Shown here one piece after another: positions 6,431-57,450 of a stretch of 64,000 bases of DNA. Source of the DNA: a virus. A program made the position numbers and the translations under genes. The stretch covers positions 57,090-121,089 of IMG/VR virus record IMGVR_UViG_3300024999_000048. One strand, given 5' to 3'. The notes below the pieces were generated by a model that was given only the letters and a program-made list of their open reading frames with translations, was not told the origin of the DNA and ran no database searches. Position 1 is the stretch's first letter. Every line of letters begins with the position of its first letter.

Positions 6431-6813
6431 ATTCCCAGAAAAGAATAGTTTTAAAGGCAAGAAAGGACAACAAAAATGTTTAAATTAGAATTGTCAAAAG
6501 TTTCAGGGATTTTAGTTAAGCAATCAAATATATTTGAGTGCGATTTAAAAACTGCTTGGGAAAAGTGGATGCATCCTGCTATTACGGAACAGTTTACATA
6601 TGAAGAAGTTAAATTGTTTATAGAGGGGAATAAAAGTAAGTGTAATAAGTATTAATTAATTTTAAAGAGGAGATTATATGCATAAAATAAAAGGATATTG
6701 GAGTAAATTTGTTTTAATTCAAATGATAGCAATAATACTTTTGTCTATAATTGGATTACCTAAAAGTAATTCCAGTATTTATTGGTGGATGGGAGTTACT
6801 TTGATTGATATGA

Positions 6814-7158
6814 TTGCTACTCATCCTGTATTTTATGAAGAGGAGTAAGATAATAATGGATGATGATATTATTGAATTTGAACCAGAAACTAAAATACCG
6901 TTATGGGGAAGAATTATATCATGGATATTTGGTGGAATTCTTTTAATAATTGCATTATCAATATTAGTGATTGGATCTTGGACTTTAGGATTAAGTATAT
7001 TAGAAGAAATGAAAATGTTTGGATTATTAAAGACTTTATTAACTTTAGGTGTAGGATCTTTGTTATTTTTGCTTTCTGCAATAATGATTGTTTTGTTTAC
7101 TGCTATTGTAAGGAGAATTATGAAGTGGGAATGGTTGAAGATTCCACCAATGGAGTAG
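6814..7158 (+). CDS. Two-TM membrane protein
   Basis: Two hydrophobic segments; likely start at MDDD after GAGGAG. Confidence 0.6.
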   Translation: MLLILYFMKRSKIIMDDDIIEFEPETKIPLWGRIISWIFGGILLIIALSILVIGSWTLGLSILEEMKMFGLLKTLLTLGVGSLLFLLSAIMIVLFTAIVRRIMKWEWLKIPPME

Positions 7159-7205
7159 GGGTTATTTAGTTGTTGAGTGATAGAAGAGAGGATAAAAGGA
7201 TGTGA

Positions 7206-7274
7206 TTGTAATGTAGAAATAAATATATGGTACAATGTATATTGGACAAATAATTGGTCATAATAATTATCACG
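7206..7274 (+). promoter_or_regulatory. Putative promoter/operator of MazF-like gene 1
   Basis: Extended -10 TG-G-TACAAT (7228-7236), imperfect palindrome GACAAATAATTGGTC (7245-7259), ATTATCACG (7266). Confidence 0.45.
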
Positions 7275-7303
7275 GAGTTAAATAAAAAGGAGTGATAATT
7301 ATT

Positions 7304-7708
7304 ATGCAAGTAGTAAATAAAGTTCAACAATCGCAACAGTTGGTTAGAGGTGGGATATACCTAGTTGATCTAGGTGAAGGAAGAGGATCTTTGCAAGGAA
7401 AGGTTCGTCCATGTGTGTTAATTTCGAACCGAATGGCTAATATCCACAGTTCAGTTTTGCATATATGTCCAGTGAGTTCAATTACTACTAAGTCAAAATT
7501 ACCGACGCATATTGGATTGAGCAAAAATAATTCTGGATTATTAAGGGATAGTATTGTACTCTGCGAACAAACACAACTGGTTACGAAGGATTCAATAGGT
7601 CGCATGGTTGGCCTTTGTTTGGAGGAAGATTTAATGAGAATTAATAGAGGAATTGCTATACAGTTCGGATTATCTGAAGTTAGAAATAATGTTGCTTATG
7701 CAAATTAA
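7304..7708 (+). CDS. PemK/MazF-family endoribonuclease-like protein 1 (no adjacent MazE)
   Basis: RGGIYLVDLG, GSLQGKVRPCVLISN, KSKLPTH, RDSIVLCEQ align with NdoA/MazF; ATG chosen after AAAAGGAG. Confidence 0.85.
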   Translation: MQVVNKVQQSQQLVRGGIYLVDLGEGRGSLQGKVRPCVLISNRMANIHSSVLHICPVSSITTKSKLPTHIGLSKNNSGLLRDSIVLCEQTQLVTKDSIGRMVGLCLEEDLMRINRGIAIQFGLSEVRNNVAYAN

Positions 7709-7727
7709 GAAGGAGAGATATAATTAA

Positions 7728-8630
7728 TTGAAAGAGTTTAAAGATTTAATTGGTCAAACGTTTAATAGATGGACTGTAATTGGCATATCTGATAAAACAA
7801 ATAAACATTATGATAGATATTGGTTATGTCAATGCAGTTGTGAAAATAAAACAATAAGAGAAGTTAGTGAACTTAGTTTGATAAAAGAGAGAAGTAAGAG
7901 TTGTGGATGTTATTCAAGTGAAGTAACGACTAAAATGAATAAAGATAGATCAATCAGAGATAAATATCCACATTACAAAAGAATATATAGTGTTTACGAT
8001 GGAATGAGAAAGAGATGCTATAATGAAAACAACGACAATTATAAATACTATGGTGCGAAAGGAGTTATTATATGTAAAGAGTGGTTAAGTGATTTTATGA
8101 AGTTTTATCATTGGTCAATAGAGAATGGATATAGTCCTGAATTGACTATAGACAGAATAGAAACACACGGTATATATGAACCAGATAATTGCAGATGGGC
8201 GACTCAAGAAGTTCAAGATTATAATAAAAGAAATACAGTATATCTTGAAATTGATGGAGAATCGAAAACTGTATTAGATTGGGAGAAGATATCAGGATTA
8301 TCTTATTCTGTTCTTTGGCAAAGATATAAAATATTTGGTTTTAGAACAAAAGAAGAAATGTTTAAACCTGTTAGACAAGTTACTAAGATAATACATAATG
8401 GCATAGAAAAAACATTAAGACAATTACATGAAGAGACAGGGTTAGGAATAGCTATTTTAGAGTGGAGAAATAAACAAGGATTAAAAGATGATGAATTAAT
8501 AAAACCAGCAAATAGATGGGCAGGACATGTAAAATCTACAGAAAAAAGAATTAGAAAGAAAAAGACAAAAAATGTAATAGATATACAAAACACAATAGAT
8601 ATAAGAGAAGAGGTGTTAACCATTGGTTGA
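7728..8630 (+). CDS. HNH-type homing endonuclease-like protein
   Basis: WLCQCSC/SCGC N-terminus, YGAKGVIIC, TIDRI...YEPDNCRWAT, C-terminal HTH-like repeats. Confidence 0.8.
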   Translation: MKEFKDLIGQTFNRWTVIGISDKTNKHYDRYWLCQCSCENKTIREVSELSLIKERSKSCGCYSSEVTTKMNKDRSIRDKYPHYKRIYSVYDGMRKRCYNENNDNYKYYGAKGVIICKEWLSDFMKFYHWSIENGYSPELTIDRIETHGIYEPDNCRWATQEVQDYNKRNTVYLEIDGESKTVLDWEKISGLSYSVLWQRYKIFGFRTKEEMFKPVRQVTKIIHNGIEKTLRQLHEETGLGIAILEWRNKQGLKDDELIKPANRWAGHVKSTEKRIRKKKTKNVIDIQNTIDIREEVLTIG

Positions 8631-9243
8631 AACCCTCATAGCATCACTGCTATTCTCTAAACTTCATCTTTACATAAAACTAGGCAAACTCCAAATACAC
8701 AAAGAATCATATCTAATAAAACCAATACTAAAACAATGGAGTTTCTATCCAGTAATATTTATGTCGATATTTTATGTCTATCTACAATACACAATAATGA
8801 ATCAGAATTACTATTTTCTTCAATATCAACATATAATAAAAAATGCTATATTAGGATCATATATGGTTCTAGGACTTGATGTTCTATTAAGGTATGAGAA
8901 GTATAAAGAGTATATTATTGCATGTTGTAGTCTCTTGTGTGGCTTTACATTGAATTATATTGTAATGCATTTTAATCAGGGGAAGATGCCGATTTTTCCC
9001 GATATCTCTTATTCAACTGGTTACACACAATATAATGTGATTATGAATGCTTCTAAGTTTAGCGATTTTCATGTTTTAGGTGATCACACAACAAGATTGA
9101 TATTTTTATCAGATATATTCGATATAGGAGGAAGTATTTGGTCTCCTGGAGATGTGCTTTGTAGATTATTTGCTTTTATAATCGTCTACTTTTCGGTTAA
9201 AGAAATTAGCAAAATACATATGAATAAAATAGAGAATCAATAA
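8623..9243 (+). CDS. DUF5317-like membrane protein
   Basis: LNYIVMHFNQGKMP, TRLIFLSDIF, WSPGD motifs; multiple TM segments. Confidence 0.65.
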   Translation: MVETLIASLLFSKLHLYIKLGKLQIHKESYLIKPILKQWSFYPVIFMSIFYVYLQYTIMNQNYYFLQYQHIIKNAILGSYMVLGLDVLLRYEKYKEYIIACCSLLCGFTLNYIVMHFNQGKMPIFPDISYSTGYTQYNVIMNASKFSDFHVLGDHTTRLIFLSDIFDIGGSIWSPGDVLCRLFAFIIVYFSVKEISKIHMNKIENQ

Positions 9244-9255
9244 ATAAAATAATAC

Positions 9256-9284
9256 TTGCGTTACGCCTTGTCTTATGGTATAGT
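9256..9284 (+). promoter_or_regulatory. SigA-type promoter for membrane protein 1 and agrD
   Basis: TTGCGT, 17 nt, TG-G-TATAGT. Confidence 0.55.
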
Positions 9285-9324
9285 TATTACAGGTTAAGAA
9301 ATGGATAAGAAAGAGGTAATACAT

Positions 9325-10140
9325 ATGCAAGGTGTAACAAATGCTTTATTAAACACAATTTTAGTTAGTATACCGGAGGAAGCTTTTATTGTGATTATGA
9401 CATTGGTTTTTCTAAAACGATTTGATATGTTGGACATACGAATGTGGAAACACAGTTTAAAATGGGTTATGGTTCCAACAATTCCTGTGGCAATGGTAAT
9501 AAATGTGTTTAGATACATAATAATCATACCAAAACCAACAATGTCTTTAATTGCTTTTATATTAATGAATGTACTAATCTTATATGTGGTTATAAAGAAC
9601 AGTTATAGTATTGATAAAAAATTAATTTTTAAAACAATAATTTTTACAGTTTTGAGTTTTATTATTGTTGGATTAATTGAATTGTTATATTATCCTCTTT
9701 CCCTTTCATTGCTACATAAGGAAATGAGTTTTTTTGATAATAAAATTATATACAATATAATAATATCACTTCCTGCAAGAATTATTGAAATATGTATTTT
9801 GACGTTTGTAGTAATAAAAAAGAACAATACAGTACAGGTAAATTTATTTAATACAATAGTCAAAAATAGATTTTTTACAAATAGTTTCTTAACTATAATT
9901 ATATCAATAGTGTCATTGATTATTTATATAGCAAAGTTAATAATTGTTGATAATATCATTATTCATATTAGTATTGTTGATCAGTTGATTTTAACTTCGA
10001 TTGTAATATCTGCACCAATAATATTGATCACATGGTTCTTAATGTTTATCAACTATTTGTTAACAAAAGAAAAACAAATACAACAGACTTATGAGAGTCT
10101 TGTTATGCAAGATGACATAATGCTTGATGTAGAAGATTAA
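9325..10140 (+). CDS. Polytopic membrane protein 1, AgrC-sensor-like, no kinase domain
   Basis: About 7 hydrophobic segments and a short acidic tail; paralogue of 12070-12921 (shared VSIPEEAFI, DIxMWK, LPAR); start set by RBS and paralogue alignment. Confidence 0.6.
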   Translation: MQGVTNALLNTILVSIPEEAFIVIMTLVFLKRFDMLDIRMWKHSLKWVMVPTIPVAMVINVFRYIIIIPKPTMSLIAFILMNVLILYVVIKNSYSIDKKLIFKTIIFTVLSFIIVGLIELLYYPLSLSLLHKEMSFFDNKIIYNIIISLPARIIEICILTFVVIKKNNTVQVNLFNTIVKNRFFTNSFLTIIISIVSLIIYIAKLIIVDNIIIHISIVDQLILTSIVISAPIILITWFLMFINYLLTKEKQIQQTYESLVMQDDIMLDVED

Positions 10141-10160
10141 CGTGAAAGGAGGTGAAATAA

Positions 10161-10277
10161 ATGAAAAAATACGCTATTATCGCTGGAGTAGTTGCCTTGT
10201 CTGCTACGATGTTCTCAAATGTTTTTGCATCATGGTTATTTTCACATCAACCAAAAACTCCTAATTGTATGAAATAA
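10161..10277 (+). CDS. agrD: AgrD-like cyclic autoinducing peptide precursor, 38 aa (not in ORF track)
   Basis: MKKYAIIAGVVALSATMFSNVFASWLFSHQPKTPNCMK; AAAGGAGGTG RBS; hydrophobic leader, SWLFS ring, HQPKTP tail as in clostridial AgrD. Confidence 0.9.
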   Translation: MKKYAIIAGVVALSATMFSNVFASWLFSHQPKTPNCMK

Positions 10278-10289
10278 TCTCACTCTACA

Positions 10290-10316
10290 TATAGGGAGGG
10301 TTTCAGCCTTCCCTAT
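10290..10316 (+). terminator. Hairpin terminator after agrD
   Basis: TATAGGGAGGGT-TTCA-GCCTTCCCTATA. Confidence 0.7.
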
Positions 10317-10344
10317 AATCATAATATAAATTAATAAGAAATCG

Positions 10345-10398
10345 CAAATAATTGTGTTGACATATTCATACATAGTAGGATATAATTATATTATCACG
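10345..10398 (+). promoter_or_regulatory. Consensus SigA promoter for MazF-like gene 2 and agrB
   Basis: CAAATAATTG (10345), TTGACA (10357), 18 nt, TATAAT (10381), ATTATCACG (10390). Confidence 0.75.
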
Positions 10399-10427
10399 TA
10401 AGGCAAATTATAAATATCTTATTAAAT

Positions 10428-11231
10428 ATGAAAAGGATGTGCATTACTATGTTCAACAAATTATTTGCTAAATCAACTACCTCTGAGGAAAACGTCAAAA
10501 AGGATTTTAAGAAATTAGCTAATTATGTACTCCATGCAAAAGGCCAAAATAGAACGATCAATGGATTTGCAGCAGATATGAAAACCGATTCTGAATACTT
10601 AACTCTTATTGCAACCGCTAAAATAAATTCATATCCACAAATTGATTTTCTTAAAATAATTGCAAACCATTCTCAAGGAAGGGTGTCTTTGCAAGAATTA
10701 ACGATGGCATGTGGGTATTCAAACTACACTAATAATGACATGGAACAGATAAAAAGTATTGAAGTTAGACGAGGGTGGTTCTGCTACGTAAACCTAGGTG
10801 ATGCTATGGACTCAGAATATGGAGGAAATCGAATGTGTTTAATTGTGCAAAACGACGTAGGAAACCATTTCTCATCGACCTCAATTATTTTACCTCTCAC
10901 CAGCAGACGAAAAACTCAACTCCCCACGCACGTTCAAGTCGGAATAAAAAATTGCGGCCTACCACAAGAATCAATTGTTAGTTGTGAGCAAATTCGTTGT
11001 GTAAGTAAACGGAGATTAATTCAAAGGGGAATAGTTCAGAAGGTATCTGAATGTCCTCCAGATGTAATGTTAAAGGTAGAGGTGGCTTTACTCAAGGCGC
11101 AAGGAGTTATACATCTTAAAATGAATGAACAGGAAGCTATTCAACACTTAATGAACATGAATACCCAGAAAACATTTCAGTATCAAAATAATTATGCAAG
11201 TGCAGGACAGCAGGTAGCCTATGCACGATAA
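10428..11231 (+). CDS. XRE-like HTH domain fused to PemK/MazF domain (MazF-like protein 2)
   Basis: N-terminal AKGQNRTINGFAADMKTDSEYLT...ELTMACGY (HTH-like); C-terminal RRGWFCYVNLG, SEYGGNRMCLIVQNDVGN, PLTS, LPTH, CEQIRCVSKRRL. Confidence 0.8.
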   Translation: MKRMCITMFNKLFAKSTTSEENVKKDFKKLANYVLHAKGQNRTINGFAADMKTDSEYLTLIATAKINSYPQIDFLKIIANHSQGRVSLQELTMACGYSNYTNNDMEQIKSIEVRRGWFCYVNLGDAMDSEYGGNRMCLIVQNDVGNHFSSTSIILPLTSRRKTQLPTHVQVGIKNCGLPQESIVSCEQIRCVSKRRLIQRGIVQKVSECPPDVMLKVEVALLKAQGVIHLKMNEQEAIQHLMNMNTQKTFQYQNNYASAGQQVAYAR

Positions 11232-11255
11232 AAGAAAGGAAGATTAAATAATTTA

Positions 11256-11897
11256 ATGAGTTTTATTGAATTTGTATCAAATCGTTCAGCTAAATGGTTA
11301 GCTAAAAATTACCCGAACAATGGCAAATATCCAACTGTAGAGGATCAAATAGAAGTTTTCACATATGGTTTTATGGTTATATGGGGTGCTATATTAAAGG
11401 GATTCATAATGGTATCACTAGCATCTATTTTCGGAGTAATACTTCCTGCTATGATTATCACATTAACCTTCAGTAGTTTAAGAATCATAGCAGGAGGATA
11501 TCATTTCGGTGAATATACAAAATGCATCACGTTTTCTACCATTCAATTCATAGGATCAGCATTAATAGTCAAGCACACACTTCAATATTGGTCACACCTA
11601 GACATACAAGGATTATTTCTATTTTGTTGGGCAATGGGATTATATATAAATTTTCGATATATTCCCAAAGACACACCAAACAAACTGATTACAGAACCAT
11701 TAGAAAGAGCAAAGTTTAAAAAATGGTCATTATTATACTTAATTTCATGGGTAACAATGATGACCATTTTATTATTCTTCAATCTAAAAATAATTGTTAT
11801 TGCAAGTTGTTTCGGATTATTATTAGAACTTTTCTCGATAAGCAAGGTTGGTTATGGTATATATTCTCTTGTAGATGGTATTAGTATACATAAATAA
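11256..11897 (+). CDS. agrB: AgrB-family peptide-processing membrane peptidase
   Basis: EVFTYG, LRIIAGGYH...KC (catalytic His/Cys), PKDTPNKLI. Confidence 0.92.
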   Translation: MSFIEFVSNRSAKWLAKNYPNNGKYPTVEDQIEVFTYGFMVIWGAILKGFIMVSLASIFGVILPAMIITLTFSSLRIIAGGYHFGEYTKCITFSTIQFIGSALIVKHTLQYWSHLDIQGLFLFCWAMGLYINFRYIPKDTPNKLITEPLERAKFKKWSLLYLISWVTMMTILLFFNLKIIVIASCFGLLLELFSISKVGYGIYSLVDGISIHK

Positions 11898-12069
11898 AAT
11901 CTCACAAACCTCACAACATCCCATCTTATCCCATAATTGCAATACTTTATTCAATTTAATTTCCCAACATTTATGATATATTTACAGCAATAAGTAATAG
12001 CACATAATAATTACACCCTTACTCAAAACAAACCAAAAACCTAATAATAGAGAAGGAAGGAAACCCTAT

Positions 12070-12921
12070 ATGCAATCTATTACTAATGCTGTATTAAACC
12101 TACTATTCGTTTCCATCCCAGAAGAAGCATTTATTGCAATCATAACTCTAACATTCCTAAATAAACTTGACAACTTATTCGACATCTATATGTGGAAGAA
12201 AAATCTAAAATGGCTTATGATAGCAACATTGCCCGCATCAATATTAGTTTGTGTTTTGCGATTTATGTTATTAGTTCCCCAAATTATTGTAATAAAATCG
12301 GTAATGGCACTCATGATCACATCAATGATATACATAGTAGTAAAAAACTCTGACAAAATAACTATTCTTTTAATATTTAAAACAGCAATGTTCACATTAG
12401 CAGGTTTTGTAATTACAGGAATATTGGAATATGCATATTGTCCAATAATATTTTCTCTATTACATAAACCTCAAGAATTCTTTAATAATGTTTTCCTCTA
12501 TAATTTTCTATTAGGATTACCCGCTAGAGTCCTCTATACTTGTGTTGTTGTTTTTATTATAATGAAGAAAAATGGCAAAGTTAAAGTTAATTTATTTGAT
12601 ATTTTAATTAAAAGCAAATTATTTATTGGCAGTTTTGTTGTTACAATATTGTCTGTAGTTTCATTAATTGTTTATATTGCTAAATTGGTAAAAAATGAAA
12701 GTATTTTATTTAGTTTCCAATTCATTGACCAATTTATCATTATTGTAATAATCACATCTGTTCCAACTATTTTAATTACTTTGTTATTAGTGGTTATTAA
12801 TTATTTAATATCTGGTGAGAGGAAGAATCAGCAAATGTATGAGAATATTGGCAATGAGGATGGTAAGAACAACGGCAACATTAATAATGAGGAAGATATT
12901 TATGACAACTATTATGAATAG
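12070..12921 (+). CDS. Polytopic membrane protein 2, AgrC-sensor-like, no kinase domain
   Basis: Paralogue of 9325-10140; about 7 TM segments; acidic/Asn-rich tail; no HisKA or HATPase motifs. Confidence 0.6.
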   Translation: MQSITNAVLNLLFVSIPEEAFIAIITLTFLNKLDNLFDIYMWKKNLKWLMIATLPASILVCVLRFMLLVPQIIVIKSVMALMITSMIYIVVKNSDKITILLIFKTAMFTLAGFVITGILEYAYCPIIFSLLHKPQEFFNNVFLYNFLLGLPARVLYTCVVVFIIMKKNGKVKVNLFDILIKSKLFIGSFVVTILSVVSLIVYIAKLVKNESILFSFQFIDQFIIIVIITSVPTILITLLLVVINYLISGERKNQQMYENIGNEDGKNNGNINNEEDIYDNYYE

Positions 12922-12945
12922 GGTGATTCTGTACACCTCCTATTC
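12916..12945 (+). terminator. Hairpin after membrane protein 2
   Basis: GAATAGG GTG...CAC CT CCTATTC imperfect inverted repeat. Confidence 0.45.
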
Positions 12946-12972
12946 TATTCACAACTATAAATAAATAACCAT

Positions 12973-13100
12973 TTGACAAATCTCAATGAACAATGTTATA
13001 ATCATAGAGATAAATAATTAAAGTAATTAAGCATCAACCTTGCATATCGGCATATATTATTATATAATGGTATCAATACATAGCAACTTAATTTGTTGCT
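12973..13100 (+). promoter_or_regulatory. Tandem SigA promoters and palindromic operator upstream of the repressor-like pair
   Basis: TTGACA (12973), 18 nt, TG-n-TATAAT (12997); TTGCAT (13040), 17 nt, TATAAT (13063); AGCAAC-N7-GTTGCT (13082-13100). Confidence 0.7.
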
Positions 13101-13124
13101 GATATGTCAAAGGAGGAAAATAAT

Positions 13125-14477
13125 ATGAAAAAAGATCGTCAAGTTCTTGAGGATGTTCTTGATTTAGTAATTGAGGACTATTCTAATGACAACAAGGTTA
13201 TGGAACATGTTATAGTTAAATTATTAGAAAGAGGTATCCCAAGAGGACTTACAACTGGTCTGTTTACCAAAGCTACGCCATTGGTTTATGCTTCAGAAAC
13301 CGAATTGTGTTTATTTACAAAGTACCTCTTTGGATATACTCACAGACCAGAAATAAATCCAGAAGAATTTTTTACAGAAATAGACTTATCTTTAGCAGAA
13401 TCGTATCAAAAACTAGAAAAGGACAAAGTTAAATATATTTTGTTGCATAATGTTGATCAACTTACTCCAACTCAATTTTTATGTACAAAAGAGACTTATC
13501 AAAATAATAGTGTTTATATGGGGAATGGATTATTAACTTATAATCCAAATACTCAAAGACAACTTCTGAAACGAAGAAGTGGAGACAAAATCATTGAATC
13601 AATTAATGTTGGTGGGAAAAAAGTTACAGAAATTACTTCATCAATGTTAGACAATACATTTTGCCCAAATGCAATCATATGGAACATTAGAAAGATAAAC
13701 GGACAAGAGAAGTTTAAATACGATGCAAAATCTAGAACCTTATTAATTGAACCTGACAATATCACAACTTTTGTGGACATAATCGATGGTGCAAATCGTA
13801 CTTGTGGGATGATTAAGGTTGTTGAACTTAAACCTGAAATTGATAGAATTACTTCGATATATATTCATCATGTCACGGAAGAACGAGCGAATCAAATTAT
13901 AAAACAAGAAAGTTTAGCTGCTCCTATTCAGACAGAATGGGTTGATTTTAAAGATACCGCAAATCCAAATATGGAAGTTGCTAAAGGTATTAATGATCGT
14001 CAAAGAGAAAATGAAATGTTTAATCGAGTAGGGTTAGATTCCAAGGAATTGAAATTAGAAAACAAACTGGTTATGTTTGATACATTATCAAAAGCTATTG
14101 AATTTGTTTATGATCTTAAAGAAAAACCTGTTATTAGACAAAGAGAAGTAATTGATGATTTGGTAGAATTATTTAATAATGTCATTGGACTTAATTTTTC
14201 AAAATTTAATACAGAATTATCAGATGCCAGAGAAAAAACTTATATGGCACATGACAACATGTTTATTGGGTATATTATATTGGGAGATTTGTTAAGGCAG
14301 AAATATGAAACAGAATGGAAATCTGAGTTGGTGAAGGTATTAAAGTCTTTAGATTTTGATAAGTCTAATAAAATTTGGAAGAAAATTGGTATTGAAAACA
14401 ATGTAAATTTATCTACTTTTAAAAAGATTTCAGAGTATTTTAAAGATATTGTCTCTGAAAAGGAGGTTGCTGTATAA
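13125..14477 (+). CDS. DGQHR/DndB-ParB-like protein resembling SPbeta YopQ (SroE)
   Basis: YNPNTQR, IIDGANR (DGQHR-like) motif; about 450 aa; coupled (TAATG) to a YopR-like gene; ATG after AAGGAGG. Confidence 0.65.
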   Translation: MKKDRQVLEDVLDLVIEDYSNDNKVMEHVIVKLLERGIPRGLTTGLFTKATPLVYASETELCLFTKYLFGYTHRPEINPEEFFTEIDLSLAESYQKLEKDKVKYILLHNVDQLTPTQFLCTKETYQNNSVYMGNGLLTYNPNTQRQLLKRRSGDKIIESINVGGKKVTEITSSMLDNTFCPNAIIWNIRKINGQEKFKYDAKSRTLLIEPDNITTFVDIIDGANRTCGMIKVVELKPEIDRITSIYIHHVTEERANQIIKQESLAAPIQTEWVDFKDTANPNMEVAKGINDRQRENEMFNRVGLDSKELKLENKLVMFDTLSKAIEFVYDLKEKPVIRQREVIDDLVELFNNVIGLNFSKFNTELSDAREKTYMAHDNMFIGYIILGDLLRQKYETEWKSELVKVLKSLDFDKSNKIWKKIGIENNVNLSTFKKISEYFKDIVSEKEVAV

Positions 14478-15493
14478 TGTCGTTCACTATCGAAAGAACT
14501 TTATTCAATGAAGATCAAAAGAATCGTTTTCTTAATGAAAAATATCCAAATGAAAGCACTCGAACGACTAATACTTCTATCTTAAGAAGTGTAGGTAGAT
14601 TTGAAAATGATAAAAACAAAGATTTGTGTAAATTTAGTTATGAAGAAGTAAAAGAATTATTGATTGGTATGAAAAAGAAATCTGTGAAATCATTGGGTGT
14701 TGCTTATACAATTATTATGCAGTATCTTGATTGGTGTTTATTCAACAATTACAGTTCAATGAATGTTTTGAAGTTGGTTGATAAAAAAGAAGACCTTCCA
14801 AAATATGTTCATCAAGTAGCTCAGAAAAATTCTTATATCTCTAGAGATCAAATGTATTCTTACTGTGACCGGCTCTATAATTATGCCGACAAAGCAATGA
14901 TTGCATTATTATTTGAAAATGTTAGAGGAAGAACAGAAAAAGGTCATTCGTATGAAGAAATGAGAAATCTAAAAATTAATGATATATTCCCTGAAACAAA
15001 TACAATTGCCATAACTAGGGATGTAGATGATAATGTAAAGAATGACGCAGAGACTCCAAACCCAAGAACAATTAGTGTAGACCCAAGAACTATGGATATT
15101 CTCGTTGCAGCAGCCATAGAAGACACCTATCATCGTAGTAATGGTGAAGCGGAAGGTAGATTCGCTATATCTCAAACCAAAGACACTCCCTACCTTCTAA
15201 GAACGCTGGACAGGAAGAGTAGCGCTGGAGATGATAGAATTACGGTAGGAAATATTAGTGCAAGATTTAAAAATTTCCGTCAATATACTGGCATCAAATT
15301 TCTAAATCCAACCCTAGTATTTCAAAGTGGAATGTTTGACCGATGTTTTAAAGAGGAAGCAGATATTGGCGAGTTGAGTTCAGATAATTTTCGATATATA
15401 CTCAGTGATTTAGAATTGGATGAAAGGGGTTGGCAAGGATTAAAAGAAACTTATGAAAGTTACAAACAAATACAGTCTACAGTCCCTAAATAA
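14477..15493 (+). CDS. Tyrosine-recombinase-fold protein resembling SPbeta master repressor YopR (MrpR/SroF)
   Basis: FNEDQKNRFL...FENDKNKDLCKFSYEEV N-terminus, LLFENVRG...EMRNLKINDI, FQSG in place of the catalytic HxxR. Confidence 0.7.
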   Translation: MSFTIERTLFNEDQKNRFLNEKYPNESTRTTNTSILRSVGRFENDKNKDLCKFSYEEVKELLIGMKKKSVKSLGVAYTIIMQYLDWCLFNNYSSMNVLKLVDKKEDLPKYVHQVAQKNSYISRDQMYSYCDRLYNYADKAMIALLFENVRGRTEKGHSYEEMRNLKINDIFPETNTIAITRDVDDNVKNDAETPNPRTISVDPRTMDILVAAAIEDTYHRSNGEAEGRFAISQTKDTPYLLRTLDRKSSAGDDRITVGNISARFKNFRQYTGIKFLNPTLVFQSGMFDRCFKEEADIGELSSDNFRYILSDLELDERGWQGLKETYESYKQIQSTVPK

Positions 15494-15507
15494 TGGGGCT
15501 GTAGACT
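15474..15507 (+). terminator. Hairpin ending the repressor-like operon
   Basis: AGTCTACAGTCCC-N8-GGGGCTGTAGACT. Confidence 0.65.
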
Positions 15508-15644: not shown

Positions 15645-16133
15645 TTGAGCAGAGGGCGAATATGTGTTCCTAAAACAAGCTCAGAAAGGAACAAACATTT
15701 GGGTTCACTAAAAAATTATAAAGGGGTAGATGAATTGATAGCAGAACAGGAAGTATTTGTACTCAAAGACAGTAGAGGTAATTTTGTAGGAGTTAATTCC
15801 ATTTCGTATGATAAACGAAAAAGAAAAAATATCTATTCCTATTCGGAAATACATACGAATGGATACCGTACATATACAAATATAGACGATGCGAAAAAAA
15901 TCTTGTATCTCCTTCAAGAAAAGGGAACAAAAATAAAATTTGGAATCCATTTCCATATTGAAAAGGTAAATAGGCAAGAGGTAGTGAAAAATGAATATAA
16001 ATTGGGTATTATTAAAACTTGCCCATTTAAACACATGGTAATTGACGAAATAGAAATAGATCAAATAGTTAATTCTATAGGAATATCATGTATTTTAATG
16101 GATTATAGAACGATGGTAGAGGTGGGAGTATAG
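15645..16133 (+). CDS. Hypothetical protein
   Basis: ORF track; possible TTGCAA-17-GATAAT promoter upstream. Confidence 0.55.
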   Translation: MSRGRICVPKTSSERNKHLGSLKNYKGVDELIAEQEVFVLKDSRGNFVGVNSISYDKRKRKNIYSYSEIHTNGYRTYTNIDDAKKILYLLQEKGTKIKFGIHFHIEKVNRQEVVKNEYKLGIIKTCPFKHMVIDEIEIDQIVNSIGISCILMDYRTMVEVGV

Positions 16134-56874: not shown

Positions 56875-57450
56875 TTGGATAGATTAGATATATTCAAAAC
56901 AGAACTATCATACATATTAAATCCTAAAATTAAAGAGTTTACAGAGAAAACATTAAATACTTTACCAGAATACTTTTTCTCAATTCCTGCATCATCTTCA
57001 GGAAAATATCACCCAAATTATGCTTTAGGAGAAGGAGGTTTGGTTAGACATACCCAATCAGCAGTAAGAATCGCAGTAGAAATGTTTAGGTTGGATATTT
57101 TTAAATACACAGAAGATGATAAAGATATAATTGTTTCATCTTTAATATTACACGATAGTTATAAATCAGGTATAGAAAATAGTTCTCATACAGTCACAGA
57201 ACATCCTTTAATTGCTGCAAAAATGATTAGGTCTAATACAGAAATAAATAGTTGTATAGATGAAAATGTATTAAATATGATTGTTGACAATATTGAGTCG
57301 CATATGGGGCAATTCATATTTGATTACAAAACTAAAAAAGAAGTTTTACCAAGACCAAAAAGTAAAATACAACATTTTGTACATTGGTGTGATTATTTGG
57401 CTAGTAGAAAGTGCCTAGAATTTAATTTTGATGTAAAAGTTATACGATAA
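56875..57450 (+). CDS. HD-domain phosphohydrolase
   Basis: PASSSGKYHP, GGLVRHT, ILHD, SHMG, HWCDYLASR. Confidence 0.8.
   Translation: MDRLDIFKTELSYILNPKIKEFTEKTLNTLPEYFFSIPASSSGKYHPNYALGEGGLVRHTQSAVRIAVEMFRLDIFKYTEDDKDIIVSSLILHDSYKSGIENSSHTVTEHPLIAAKMIRSNTEINSCIDENVLNMIVDNIESHMGQFIFDYKTKKEVLPRPKSKIQHFVHWCDYLASRKCLEFNFDVKVIR

Follow-up and report, generated by a model that had tools for sequence, protein, structure and literature searches.

To our knowledge, the arbitrium is the only phage-phage peptide language described so far, and it is confined to phages of the Bacillus group; among Clostridia, orphan agrBD loci devoid of a known receptor have long been a puzzle. As to phage phi3T, the premise of the initial annotation of the DNA considered here, namely that the decision of this phage runs through MazF, is in print: PMC10769878 states that the main function of the arbitrium is the control of MazF activity and that lysogeny is promoted by MazF in a way yet to be explained; the master repressor of phi3T is YopR, also named SroF, a protein of integrase fold (10.1101/2025.11.27.690993). 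The present analysis deals with a locus found in a stretch of 64,000 nucleotides (the window), positions 57,090 to 121,089 of the IMG/VR virus record IMGVR_UViG_3300024999_000048, which make up the right-hand part of that record (121 kb in all, rated 72% complete). Our reading, to which we assign a probability of roughly 0.55, is that a conserved phage cassette joins agr-type cyclic-peptide signalling to phage-encoded MazF directly before yopQ/yopR and would bias the lysogeny switch; the cassette is a strong candidate for a second means, next to the arbitrium, by which phages communicate with each other.

Ten genes, all on the + strand, are found between 7292 and 15493, in the order reported initially (MazF 1, HNH, DUF5317, transmembrane (TM) protein, agrD, helix-turn-helix (HTH)-MazF 2, agrB, TM protein, DGQHR protein, recombinase-fold protein), and family searches bore out the labels given to them: two PemK/MazF proteins, an HNH protein, DUF5317, AgrD, AgrB, a paralogous TM pair, a YopQ-like and a YopR/MrpR-like protein. 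The G+C content of the window is 27-32% and its + strand carries nearly all genes; the source is a large, uncultured phage of Clostridium type. Genes and control elements of the locus are the following.

7292-7708, + strand: MazF1, single-domain PemK/MazF RNase (PemK_toxin PF02452, E 1.8e-20).
7728-8630, + strand: HNH homing endonuclease, a passenger insert (PHROG 374, E 2.6e-67; Pfam gives no match).
8623-9243, + strand: DUF5317 polytopic membrane protein (PF17248, E 6.3e-19).
9301-10140, + strand: TM1, 7-helix membrane protein, candidate cognate partner of AgrD; probable start 9325.
10161-10277, + strand: AgrD precursor, 38 amino acids (TIGR04223, 22.8 bits against a cut-off of 19).
10290-10317, + strand: hairpin after agrD, a possible terminator (11-nt inverted repeat, 91% complementary, 6-nt loop).
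10357-10386, + strand: sigma-70-type consensus promoter before MazF2 (TTGACA-18-TATAAT, 12/12).
10428-11231, + strand: HTH-MazF2, an XRE-like N-domain followed by a MazF RNase domain with a tail at the C-terminus; likely start 10449.
11256-11897, + strand: AgrB peptidase/cyclase (PF04647, E 7.2e-34).
12070-12921, + strand: TM2, accessory paralogue of TM1 (45% identical to it).
12973-13002, + strand: consensus promoter of the yopQ-yopR operon (TTGACA-18-TATAAT, 12/12, with TG).
13104-14477, + strand: YopQ (SroE)-like DndB/DGQHR protein (DndB, E 5.8e-9); probable start 13125.
14477-15493, + strand: YopR/MrpR (SroF)-like integrase-fold repressor (MrpR_N_CB PF22822, E 4e-18; MrpR_C_cat PF22823, E 2.4e-7; both above the family cut-off).

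The starts given for TM1, MazF2 and YopQ are the likely ones according to orthologue alignments and ribosome-binding sites. The two last genes had been proposed to be homologues of YopQ and YopR, and family and tblastn matches confirm it: the product of 13104-14477 matches phi3T yopQ (tblastn, E 2e-14) and PHROG 5732 (E 6e-61), that of 14477-15493 matches phi3T yopR (tblastn, E 8e-24) and the yopR of the SPbeta group (E 2e-19), the best phage matches to the window YopR being Clostridium phage c-st and then the yopR of SPbeta/phi3T. The two genes are co-oriented, the stop of yopQ overlapping the start of yopR at 14477; an SPbeta-type repression module, with a YopR carrying both MrpR domains and an adjoining YopQ, is present. 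No tblastn match to yopM-yopP (phi3T_92 to 95) or to phi3T_99 (Sar) is found at E <= 0.1 in the 121-kb record.

The signalling genes upstream are true members of the agr families, AgrB by PF04647 and the His...Cys motif, AgrD by its leader, ring and follower. The window AgrD, whose gene is preceded by a GGAGG ribosome-binding site, has the predicted ring SWLFS followed by HQPKTP. When 18 non-redundant loci were compared, 18 different five-residue rings were found, 15 beginning with Ser and three with Cys, each of them preceded by a conserved leader of hydrophobic character and succeeded by a follower of the form [HYNF]-Q-[PS]..P, so that the pattern [S/C]xxxx-[HYNF]Q[PS] occurs in all; the AgrB motif G-x-H-x6-C, whose His...Cys pair we take to be catalytic, is equally retained in 18/18. 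Neither the window AgrB nor TM1 or TM2 has a relative among 50,697 GenBank phage records or in PLSDB plasmids.

The 121-kb record has no match to HATPase_c_5, HATPase_c, LytTR or Response_reg; four related phage records, of which two are rated 100% complete, likewise have none to HATPase_c_5 or Response_reg, and none to LytTR above the family cut-off. The phi3T AimR, AimP and AimX give no tblastn match at E <= 0.1 in the 121-kb record, and the MazE_antitoxin family PF04014, which tests for the MazE fold only, has 0 matches there; among the related records it has one, in G001, about 10 kb away. The absence of an AgrA-type regulator, a kinase, MazE and AimR, noted at first for the window, thus holds over the whole record, at its 72% completeness. 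The cassette stands outside canonical agr because it is devoid of AgrC and AgrA, and outside the arbitrium because it is devoid of AimR, AimP and AimX.

The same arrangement recurs in related phages. An IMG/VR search seeded with the TM protein yielded 12 viral loci, four of them identical to each other, and in all 12 the genes for MazF1, DUF5317, TM1, AgrD, HTH-MazF2 and AgrB lie directly 5' of yopQ, which is followed by yopR in 11 (the remaining locus, L005, ends earlier). A search seeded with the window YopR found the cassette in 9/9 loci; in a wider YopR alignment, comprising 30 loci, 18 carry TM1, MazF2 and AgrB, ten (including c-st) carry a PemK gene only and no agr, one carries MazF1 and DUF5317 only, and one carries neither. 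The synteny is thus conserved in related phages; of the conditions that would have refuted the initial interpretation, this one and that on the YopQ/YopR identities both came out in its favour, and the interpretation is partly supported. Two gene orders of equal gene content exist, AgrB being placed either past MazF2 or before DUF5317. Since a PemK gene lies 5' of yopQ-yopR in 29 of the 30 YopR-seeded loci, and agr is missing from ten of them, a phage MazF beside yopQ/yopR is the general feature of this clostridial branch, agr being a frequent addition. The proposal that an agr system has "replaced" the arbitrium is rendered doubtful by the same ten relatives with PemK only; agr looks rather like an added input.

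Further indications come from the co-variation of the ring with its neighbours. In Mantel comparisons over the 18 loci, pairwise ring identity correlates best, among all genes tested, with that of TM1 (r 0.56), followed by AgrB (r 0.53), MazF2 (r 0.46) and DUF5317 (r 0.38), while no correlation is seen with MazF1 (r -0.01), TM2 (r 0.10), YopQ or YopR (all four within -0.08 to 0.10). The link between ring and TM1 remains when MazF2 (r 0.37, p 0.0005) or AgrB (r 0.26, p 0.02) is controlled for; the link between ring and MazF2 is lost once TM1 is controlled for. TM1 is found directly 5' of agrD in 18/18 loci, and in a tree its copies are long-branched and grouped by ring type; the TM2 copies form one tight clade (100/100 support), unrelated to ring type, and TM2 is intact in nine loci, absent in eight and split by an endonuclease gene in L015. 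Both membrane proteins had been taken initially as peptide receptors: as a partner of the peptide TM1 gains from these data, and TM2, which does not co-vary with the ring and is missing or broken in half of the loci, loses. DUF5317 is present in 16/18 loci, being absent in L101 and cut in L099. Neither TM2 nor DUF5317 nor the HNH gene belongs to the core of the system.

TM1 and TM2, which have no family match in Pfam, NCBIfam, PHROG or PADLOC, belong to a family of which 178 members were retrieved by a profile search of 1.84 billion representatives; none of the members exceeds 326 amino acids, and therefore none is fused to a kinase. Those looked up carry the name "hypothetical". The proteins end in a short tail past helix 7, and in their first helix a Pro-Glu(-Glu) motif hardly varies; the alignments show neither His nor Cys nor Ser to be conserved, and no clear concentration of variability in given segments along TM1. 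Comparison by hhalign of the broader TM profile (A2) with the N-terminal sensors of 21 AgrC-type kinases, taken from genomes carrying the TM family, gives a probability of 45% (P 2.2e-4) at 12% identity; AgrB, DUF5317 and Rce1-like families, as controls for the same profile, give 0.2-0.6% (all controls, 0.1-1%). A profile scan of genome contigs with the TM alignment A1 revealed no close relative. Prediction of a complex between TM1 and HTH-MazF2 returned the values 0.00, 0.62 and 0.00 in its runs, which weigh neither for nor against binding.

The treatment of the membrane genes as parts of a phage system has to be qualified, given that the family is not phage-specific and pairs with agrD in chromosomes of Clostridia. 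Thirteen loci were found in species genomes, namely metagenome-assembled genomes (MAGs) of Clostridia and Ruminiclostridium hungatei DSM 14427; one of them, L027 from a Clostridium sp. MAG, is a phage-type module. An AgrD-like open reading frame (ORF) adjoins the TM gene in 11/13, AgrB lies just 5' of it in six and a divergent XRE/HTH_3 gene just 3' of it in seven; AgrB occurs somewhere in the genome in 12/13, so that AgrB is not necessarily replaced by the TM gene. Of 300 Clostridia genomes sampled evenly, nine carry the family; in this class-wide sample, in which 15 of 17 places were examined, the two already known being left out, an AgrD-like ORF is adjacent in 12/15 and AgrB in 6/15. This adjacency in bacteria makes the TM family a companion of agrD in its own right. 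The tight pairing of TM gene and agrD, with AgrB sometimes elsewhere in the genome, resembles that of receptor and ligand, and could also fit a maturation or export factor.

The bacterial cassettes show other features of their own. In some, the AgrB-TM-AgrD/XRE genes are followed by a small gene, which is Spo0E-like in L028 (Pfam E 1.2e-9) and, by near-identical sequence, in L020 and L023; in L016 and L022 it encodes 104-120 amino acids with a weak match to DUF6809. The Spo0E-like neighbours hint at a tie to the control of sporulation; in R. cellulolyticum the peptide Rc-AIP1 controls endospore formation, according to PMC8251862. In a Bacillota MAG (L019), a chromosomal array at 6675-10144 strings together three genes of the TM family and two for AgrD; AgrB is missing from its vicinity, the two AgrB genes of this MAG being on other contigs. 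DUF5317 is absent from all 12 chromosomal TM-agrD loci and present in the phage-type module L027; no paper on it was found in the literature search. It was considered as the leader peptidase and set aside in view of its absence from these 12 loci and from L101, nothing else speaking for or against.

The two MazF proteins differ in their architecture. The closest solved relative of MazF1 is S. aureus MazF (E 3e-16); in the 267-residue HTH-MazF2, residues 115-222 are PemK_toxin (E 2.3e-21), with B. subtilis YdcE/EndoA as the closest solved relative (E 1.2e-18). Both cores align over their whole length with solved MazF and retain the Arg of G-G-x-R and a Thr/Ser at the aligned position, presumably the catalytic residues. 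HTH-MazF2 occurs in 18/18 loci, always within the agr block, and MazF1 in 16/18; no record in the GenBank phage search covers >=80% of HTH-MazF2. The N-domain of MazF2 (about 110 amino acids) is conserved among orthologues and probably an XRE-type HTH: its top PDB profile matches are to SinR (E 0.06-0.1), it aligns with the XRE regulator beside the bacterial cassette in L021, and against the cassette XRE regulators hhalign gives a probability of 62% (P 7.7e-5; controls 0.2-0.3%). It possibly derives from the XRE regulator that accompanies the bacterial cassette.

Both MazF proteins also carry conserved extra C-terminal tails which are absent from canonical MazF: at 7660-7708 in MazF1, ending in ...NNVAYAN, and at 11180-11231 in MazF2, ending in ...QQVAYAR, with ...QVAFA or ...RVASLA in orthologues (L004-L108). 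The tails are loosely similar to the transfer-messenger RNA tags ANDNLALAA, AKNDNYALAAA and AKNDNFALAAA, found by ARAGORN in three Clostridia genomes carrying the TM family, and could act as a degron or docking motif. As to possible target sites, UACAUA occurs 115 times on the coding (+) strand of the whole record (G000) and 61 times on the other; the cassette (7292-12921) is enriched in it, with 11 sites, as many being found in just 2.9% of equal-length windows.

From the parts list and its conservation we infer a receptor role for TM1, an action of TM1 on MazF2, the direction of the effect and an output in lysis-lysogeny. AgrB would cut and cyclise AgrD to a five-residue (thio)lactone ring, here the Ser-based SWLFS; the peptide would leave the cell and accumulate with the number of infected or lysogenic cells; TM1, with its seven helices and no kinase, would bind the peptide and alter the state of HTH-MazF2, either its RNase activity or its DNA binding; and MazF2, together with MazF1 activity, would shift the decision in favour of the YopR repressor and of lysogeny, in the way that host MazF acts for phi3T. 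A bolder proposal may be put forward tentatively: TM1 would be the first of a novel receptor class for agr-type rings, with seven helices and no kinase, common to Clostridia and their phages and signalling to XRE regulators, the XRE-MazF fusion being a peptide-gated RNase switch between lysis and lysogeny, and the whole a second, independently evolved phage communication system with ring-coded private channels.

Several observations weigh against the cassette being a peptide-controlled lysogeny switch. The ten relatives (of 30) with PemK and no agr indicate that the switch in itself can do without the peptide. The loci compared are uncultured metagenome contigs, several apparently from related samples, and the co-variation of the ring, inflated by linkage and by the deep split between the two gene orders, is suggestive rather than proof. 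The AlphaFold2 model of the TM protein (alignment A1), with seven predicted helices, is of low confidence (pLDDT, the predicted local distance difference test score, 57.9), and its Foldseek comparison with the PDB gives no match below E 2, a null result which is uninformative on the fold because the model is poor. The likeness of the TM family to AgrC sensor domains is weak; indeed, the narrower profile A1 reaches a probability of 1% only. No antitoxin was identified for either MazF. Lastly, yopQ-yopR contains three UACAU sites, and 31% of equal-length windows are as low, so that depletion is not significant; the same applies to UACAUA (one site; 35% of windows as low), and yopR alone has no UACAU, as do 14% of windows.

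Other explanations of the locus have been considered. The cassette could be directed at the host, its autoinducing peptide (AIP) talking to or jamming host agr kinases and its MazF proteins being addiction or superinfection-exclusion toxins which keep a plasmid-like prophage, with the proximity to yopQ/yopR reflecting co-expression in the lysogen. In phage phiCDHM1 the genes agrD, agrB and agrC, which lack a response regulator, have been read as host manipulation (PMC3901668); moreover, 11 of the 13 species genomes with the TM family have AgrC-type kinases which could sense foreign AIPs, c-st, the nearest phage that has a name, retains PemK next to yopQ/yopR but no agr genes, and no antitoxin gene is seen, as is the case for some orphan phage toxins. 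We nevertheless consider this explanation unlikely: each of the 18 loci has its own ring, co-varying with a phage membrane protein, which fits a private channel better than host mimicry, and in every locus retrieved the cassette adjoins the repressor operon, whereas the agr genes of phiCDHM1 lie among lysis or moron genes. PADLOC, moreover, finds no defence family among the ten proteins scanned (those of the cassette minus AgrD, plus that of an ORF at 6814-7158). An even less probable assignment, that the genes (for a toxin of toxin-antitoxin type, an agrBD moron and the membrane proteins) are mobile, unrelated and only loosely assembled at a hot spot of recombination 5' of the repressor operon, with no shared function, draws on the insertion of homing-endonuclease genes at several places and on the shuffling of MazF1, TM2, YopQ and YopR independently of the agr block. 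Against it, the same gene content is kept at 25-45% protein identity and in two gene orders, and HTH-MazF2 lies within the agr block in 18/18 loci and co-diverges with it; we hold this reading to be highly improbable.

The role of TM1 itself may be read differently, as that of a factor for AgrD maturation, export or self-protection comparable to MroQ or PrgY, sensing being left to a host protein or to TM2. MroQ is, we assume, a member of the Rce1/CPBP family; the TM profile gives against 19 Rce1-like proteins a probability of only 0.6% (hhalign, P 0.09), and, with regard to the EExxxR/His motifs, no His is conserved in the family; nor are there conserved His, Cys or Ser residues that would point to a protease. 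The tightest linkage of the TM gene is with agrD, as would also hold for enzyme and substrate, the Pro-Glu(-Glu) of the first helix is nearly invariant, and the ring co-varies also with AgrB, a known processing enzyme; in addition, AgrD maturation requires a second step in which the leader is removed (PMC8251862). The sole non-trivial profile match of the family is with AgrC sensor domains and the pairing with an XRE regulator in 7/13 bacterial loci is a context of signalling type, both of which argue against a maturation factor, and we hold this role for TM1 to be rather improbable. No earlier description of the cassette was found: the literature search, which did not extend to supplementary files, returned none of agr genes beside yopQ/yopR, of the TM family or of the HTH-MazF fusion.

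As to the expression of the locus, perfect promoters before the MazF2 fusion and before yopQ, together with the hairpin past agrD, suggest three transcription units. The hairpin lacks a strong T run. An identical perfect promoter precedes MazF2 in L005, L007 and L015; the yopQ promoter is retained in L006, L007 and L011, and in L027 the hexamers are identical but lie 17 nt apart. A search of sequencing runs gave 15 of DNA and none of RNA.

The repressor genes and their surroundings are variable. When the loci L004-L015, L027 and L085-L108 are compared with the window, YopQ and YopR fall into two types separated by a deep divergence, one with about 75% identity to the window proteins and the other with about 25%; these types recombine freely with the agr block, MazF1 and TM2, so that at least four exchangeable units make up the region as a mosaic. 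An ORF of 162 amino acids at 15645-16133, without family, co-varies with the YopQ/YopR type, its identity being about 70% in loci with a YopR identity of about 75%, and about 30% in those with a YopR identity of about 27%; it also changes place with the type, lying 3' of yopR in one type and between TM2 and yopQ in the other; it may encode a specific partner of the repressor pair. The HNH gene at 7728-8630 is a variable homing-endonuclease insert, outside the system: at its position other loci have no gene or a different zinc-ribbon gene of 530-600 amino acids. Homing-endonuclease-like genes (HNH, or zinc-ribbon of 520-600 amino acids) occur at varied points of the cassettes, e.g., L004 4822-6420, L015 7094-8707 and L027 7030-8595. 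The ORF at 6814-7158, just 5' of MazF1, encodes a membrane protein of 114 amino acids which has counterparts in L004, L005 and L013 (48-96% identical) and no family match in searches that included PADLOC.

If the proposed reading is true, communication between phages would have arisen no fewer than two times at one and the same place in the genome, here with another chemistry (AgrB rings) and another type of sensor; the MazF route of phi3T to lysogeny would be general enough for clostridial phages to bring their own MazF; and a function would be given to the TM family accompanying agrD in Clostridia, with a bearing on the orphan agrBD loci. Through the bacterial cassettes, such as that of Ruminiclostridium hungatei DSM 14427, the system can be approached in a culturable organism.

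Compared with canonical agr, the cassette shares true AgrB and AgrD members, a five-residue Cys/Ser ring with its Q-P..P follower, and a hypervariable peptide with a co-varying membrane partner; it differs by having no histidine kinase or LytTR regulator in five phage records. The agr3 locus of the Clostridioides difficile phage phiCDHM1 resembles it in carrying phage agrD and agrB without a response regulator, and departs from it in having an AgrC-type kinase gene, a place beside the endolysin gene and no MazF; the earlier statement that the phiCDHM1 agr has a kinase and no tie to MazF agrees with the source (PMC3901668). Clostridium phage c-st, whose YopR is the best named match to that of the window (27.6% identity, E 1e-21), likewise has a PemK gene just 5' of yopQ-yopR, but in the 21 kb examined it has no AgrB, AgrD, TM or DUF5317, and the extension of its PemK is C-terminal, not N-terminal. 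With MazEF and EndoA-EndoAI the cassette has in common toxins of MazF fold, whereas the lack of a MazE gene, the XRE-like fusion and the extra C-terminal tails set it apart. The LytTR regulatory systems HdrRM and BrsRM consist of a membrane inhibitor and a transcription factor without a kinase; their logic, a polytopic membrane protein with a small DNA-binding regulator and no phosphorelay, is like that of the cassette, the likeness claimed being one of logic, and in the cassette the regulator domain is of XRE type and, in the phage, fused to an RNase. The closest parallel in position is the arbitrium of SPbeta and phi3T, which is also a secreted-peptide module directly 5' of, and co-oriented with, yopQ-yopR, with a peptide varying greatly between phages and, in phi3T, a MazF RNase as the downstream lever (PMC10769878). 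Homologues of AimR, AimP, AimX and phi3T_92 to 95 are missing from the cassette, whose peptide is an AgrB-cyclised ring and not a linear hexapeptide, whose candidate receptor is a membrane protein and not a cytoplasmic TPR protein, and whose MazF is phage-encoded, in two copies, one of them fused to an HTH domain, while the arbitrium uses that of the host.

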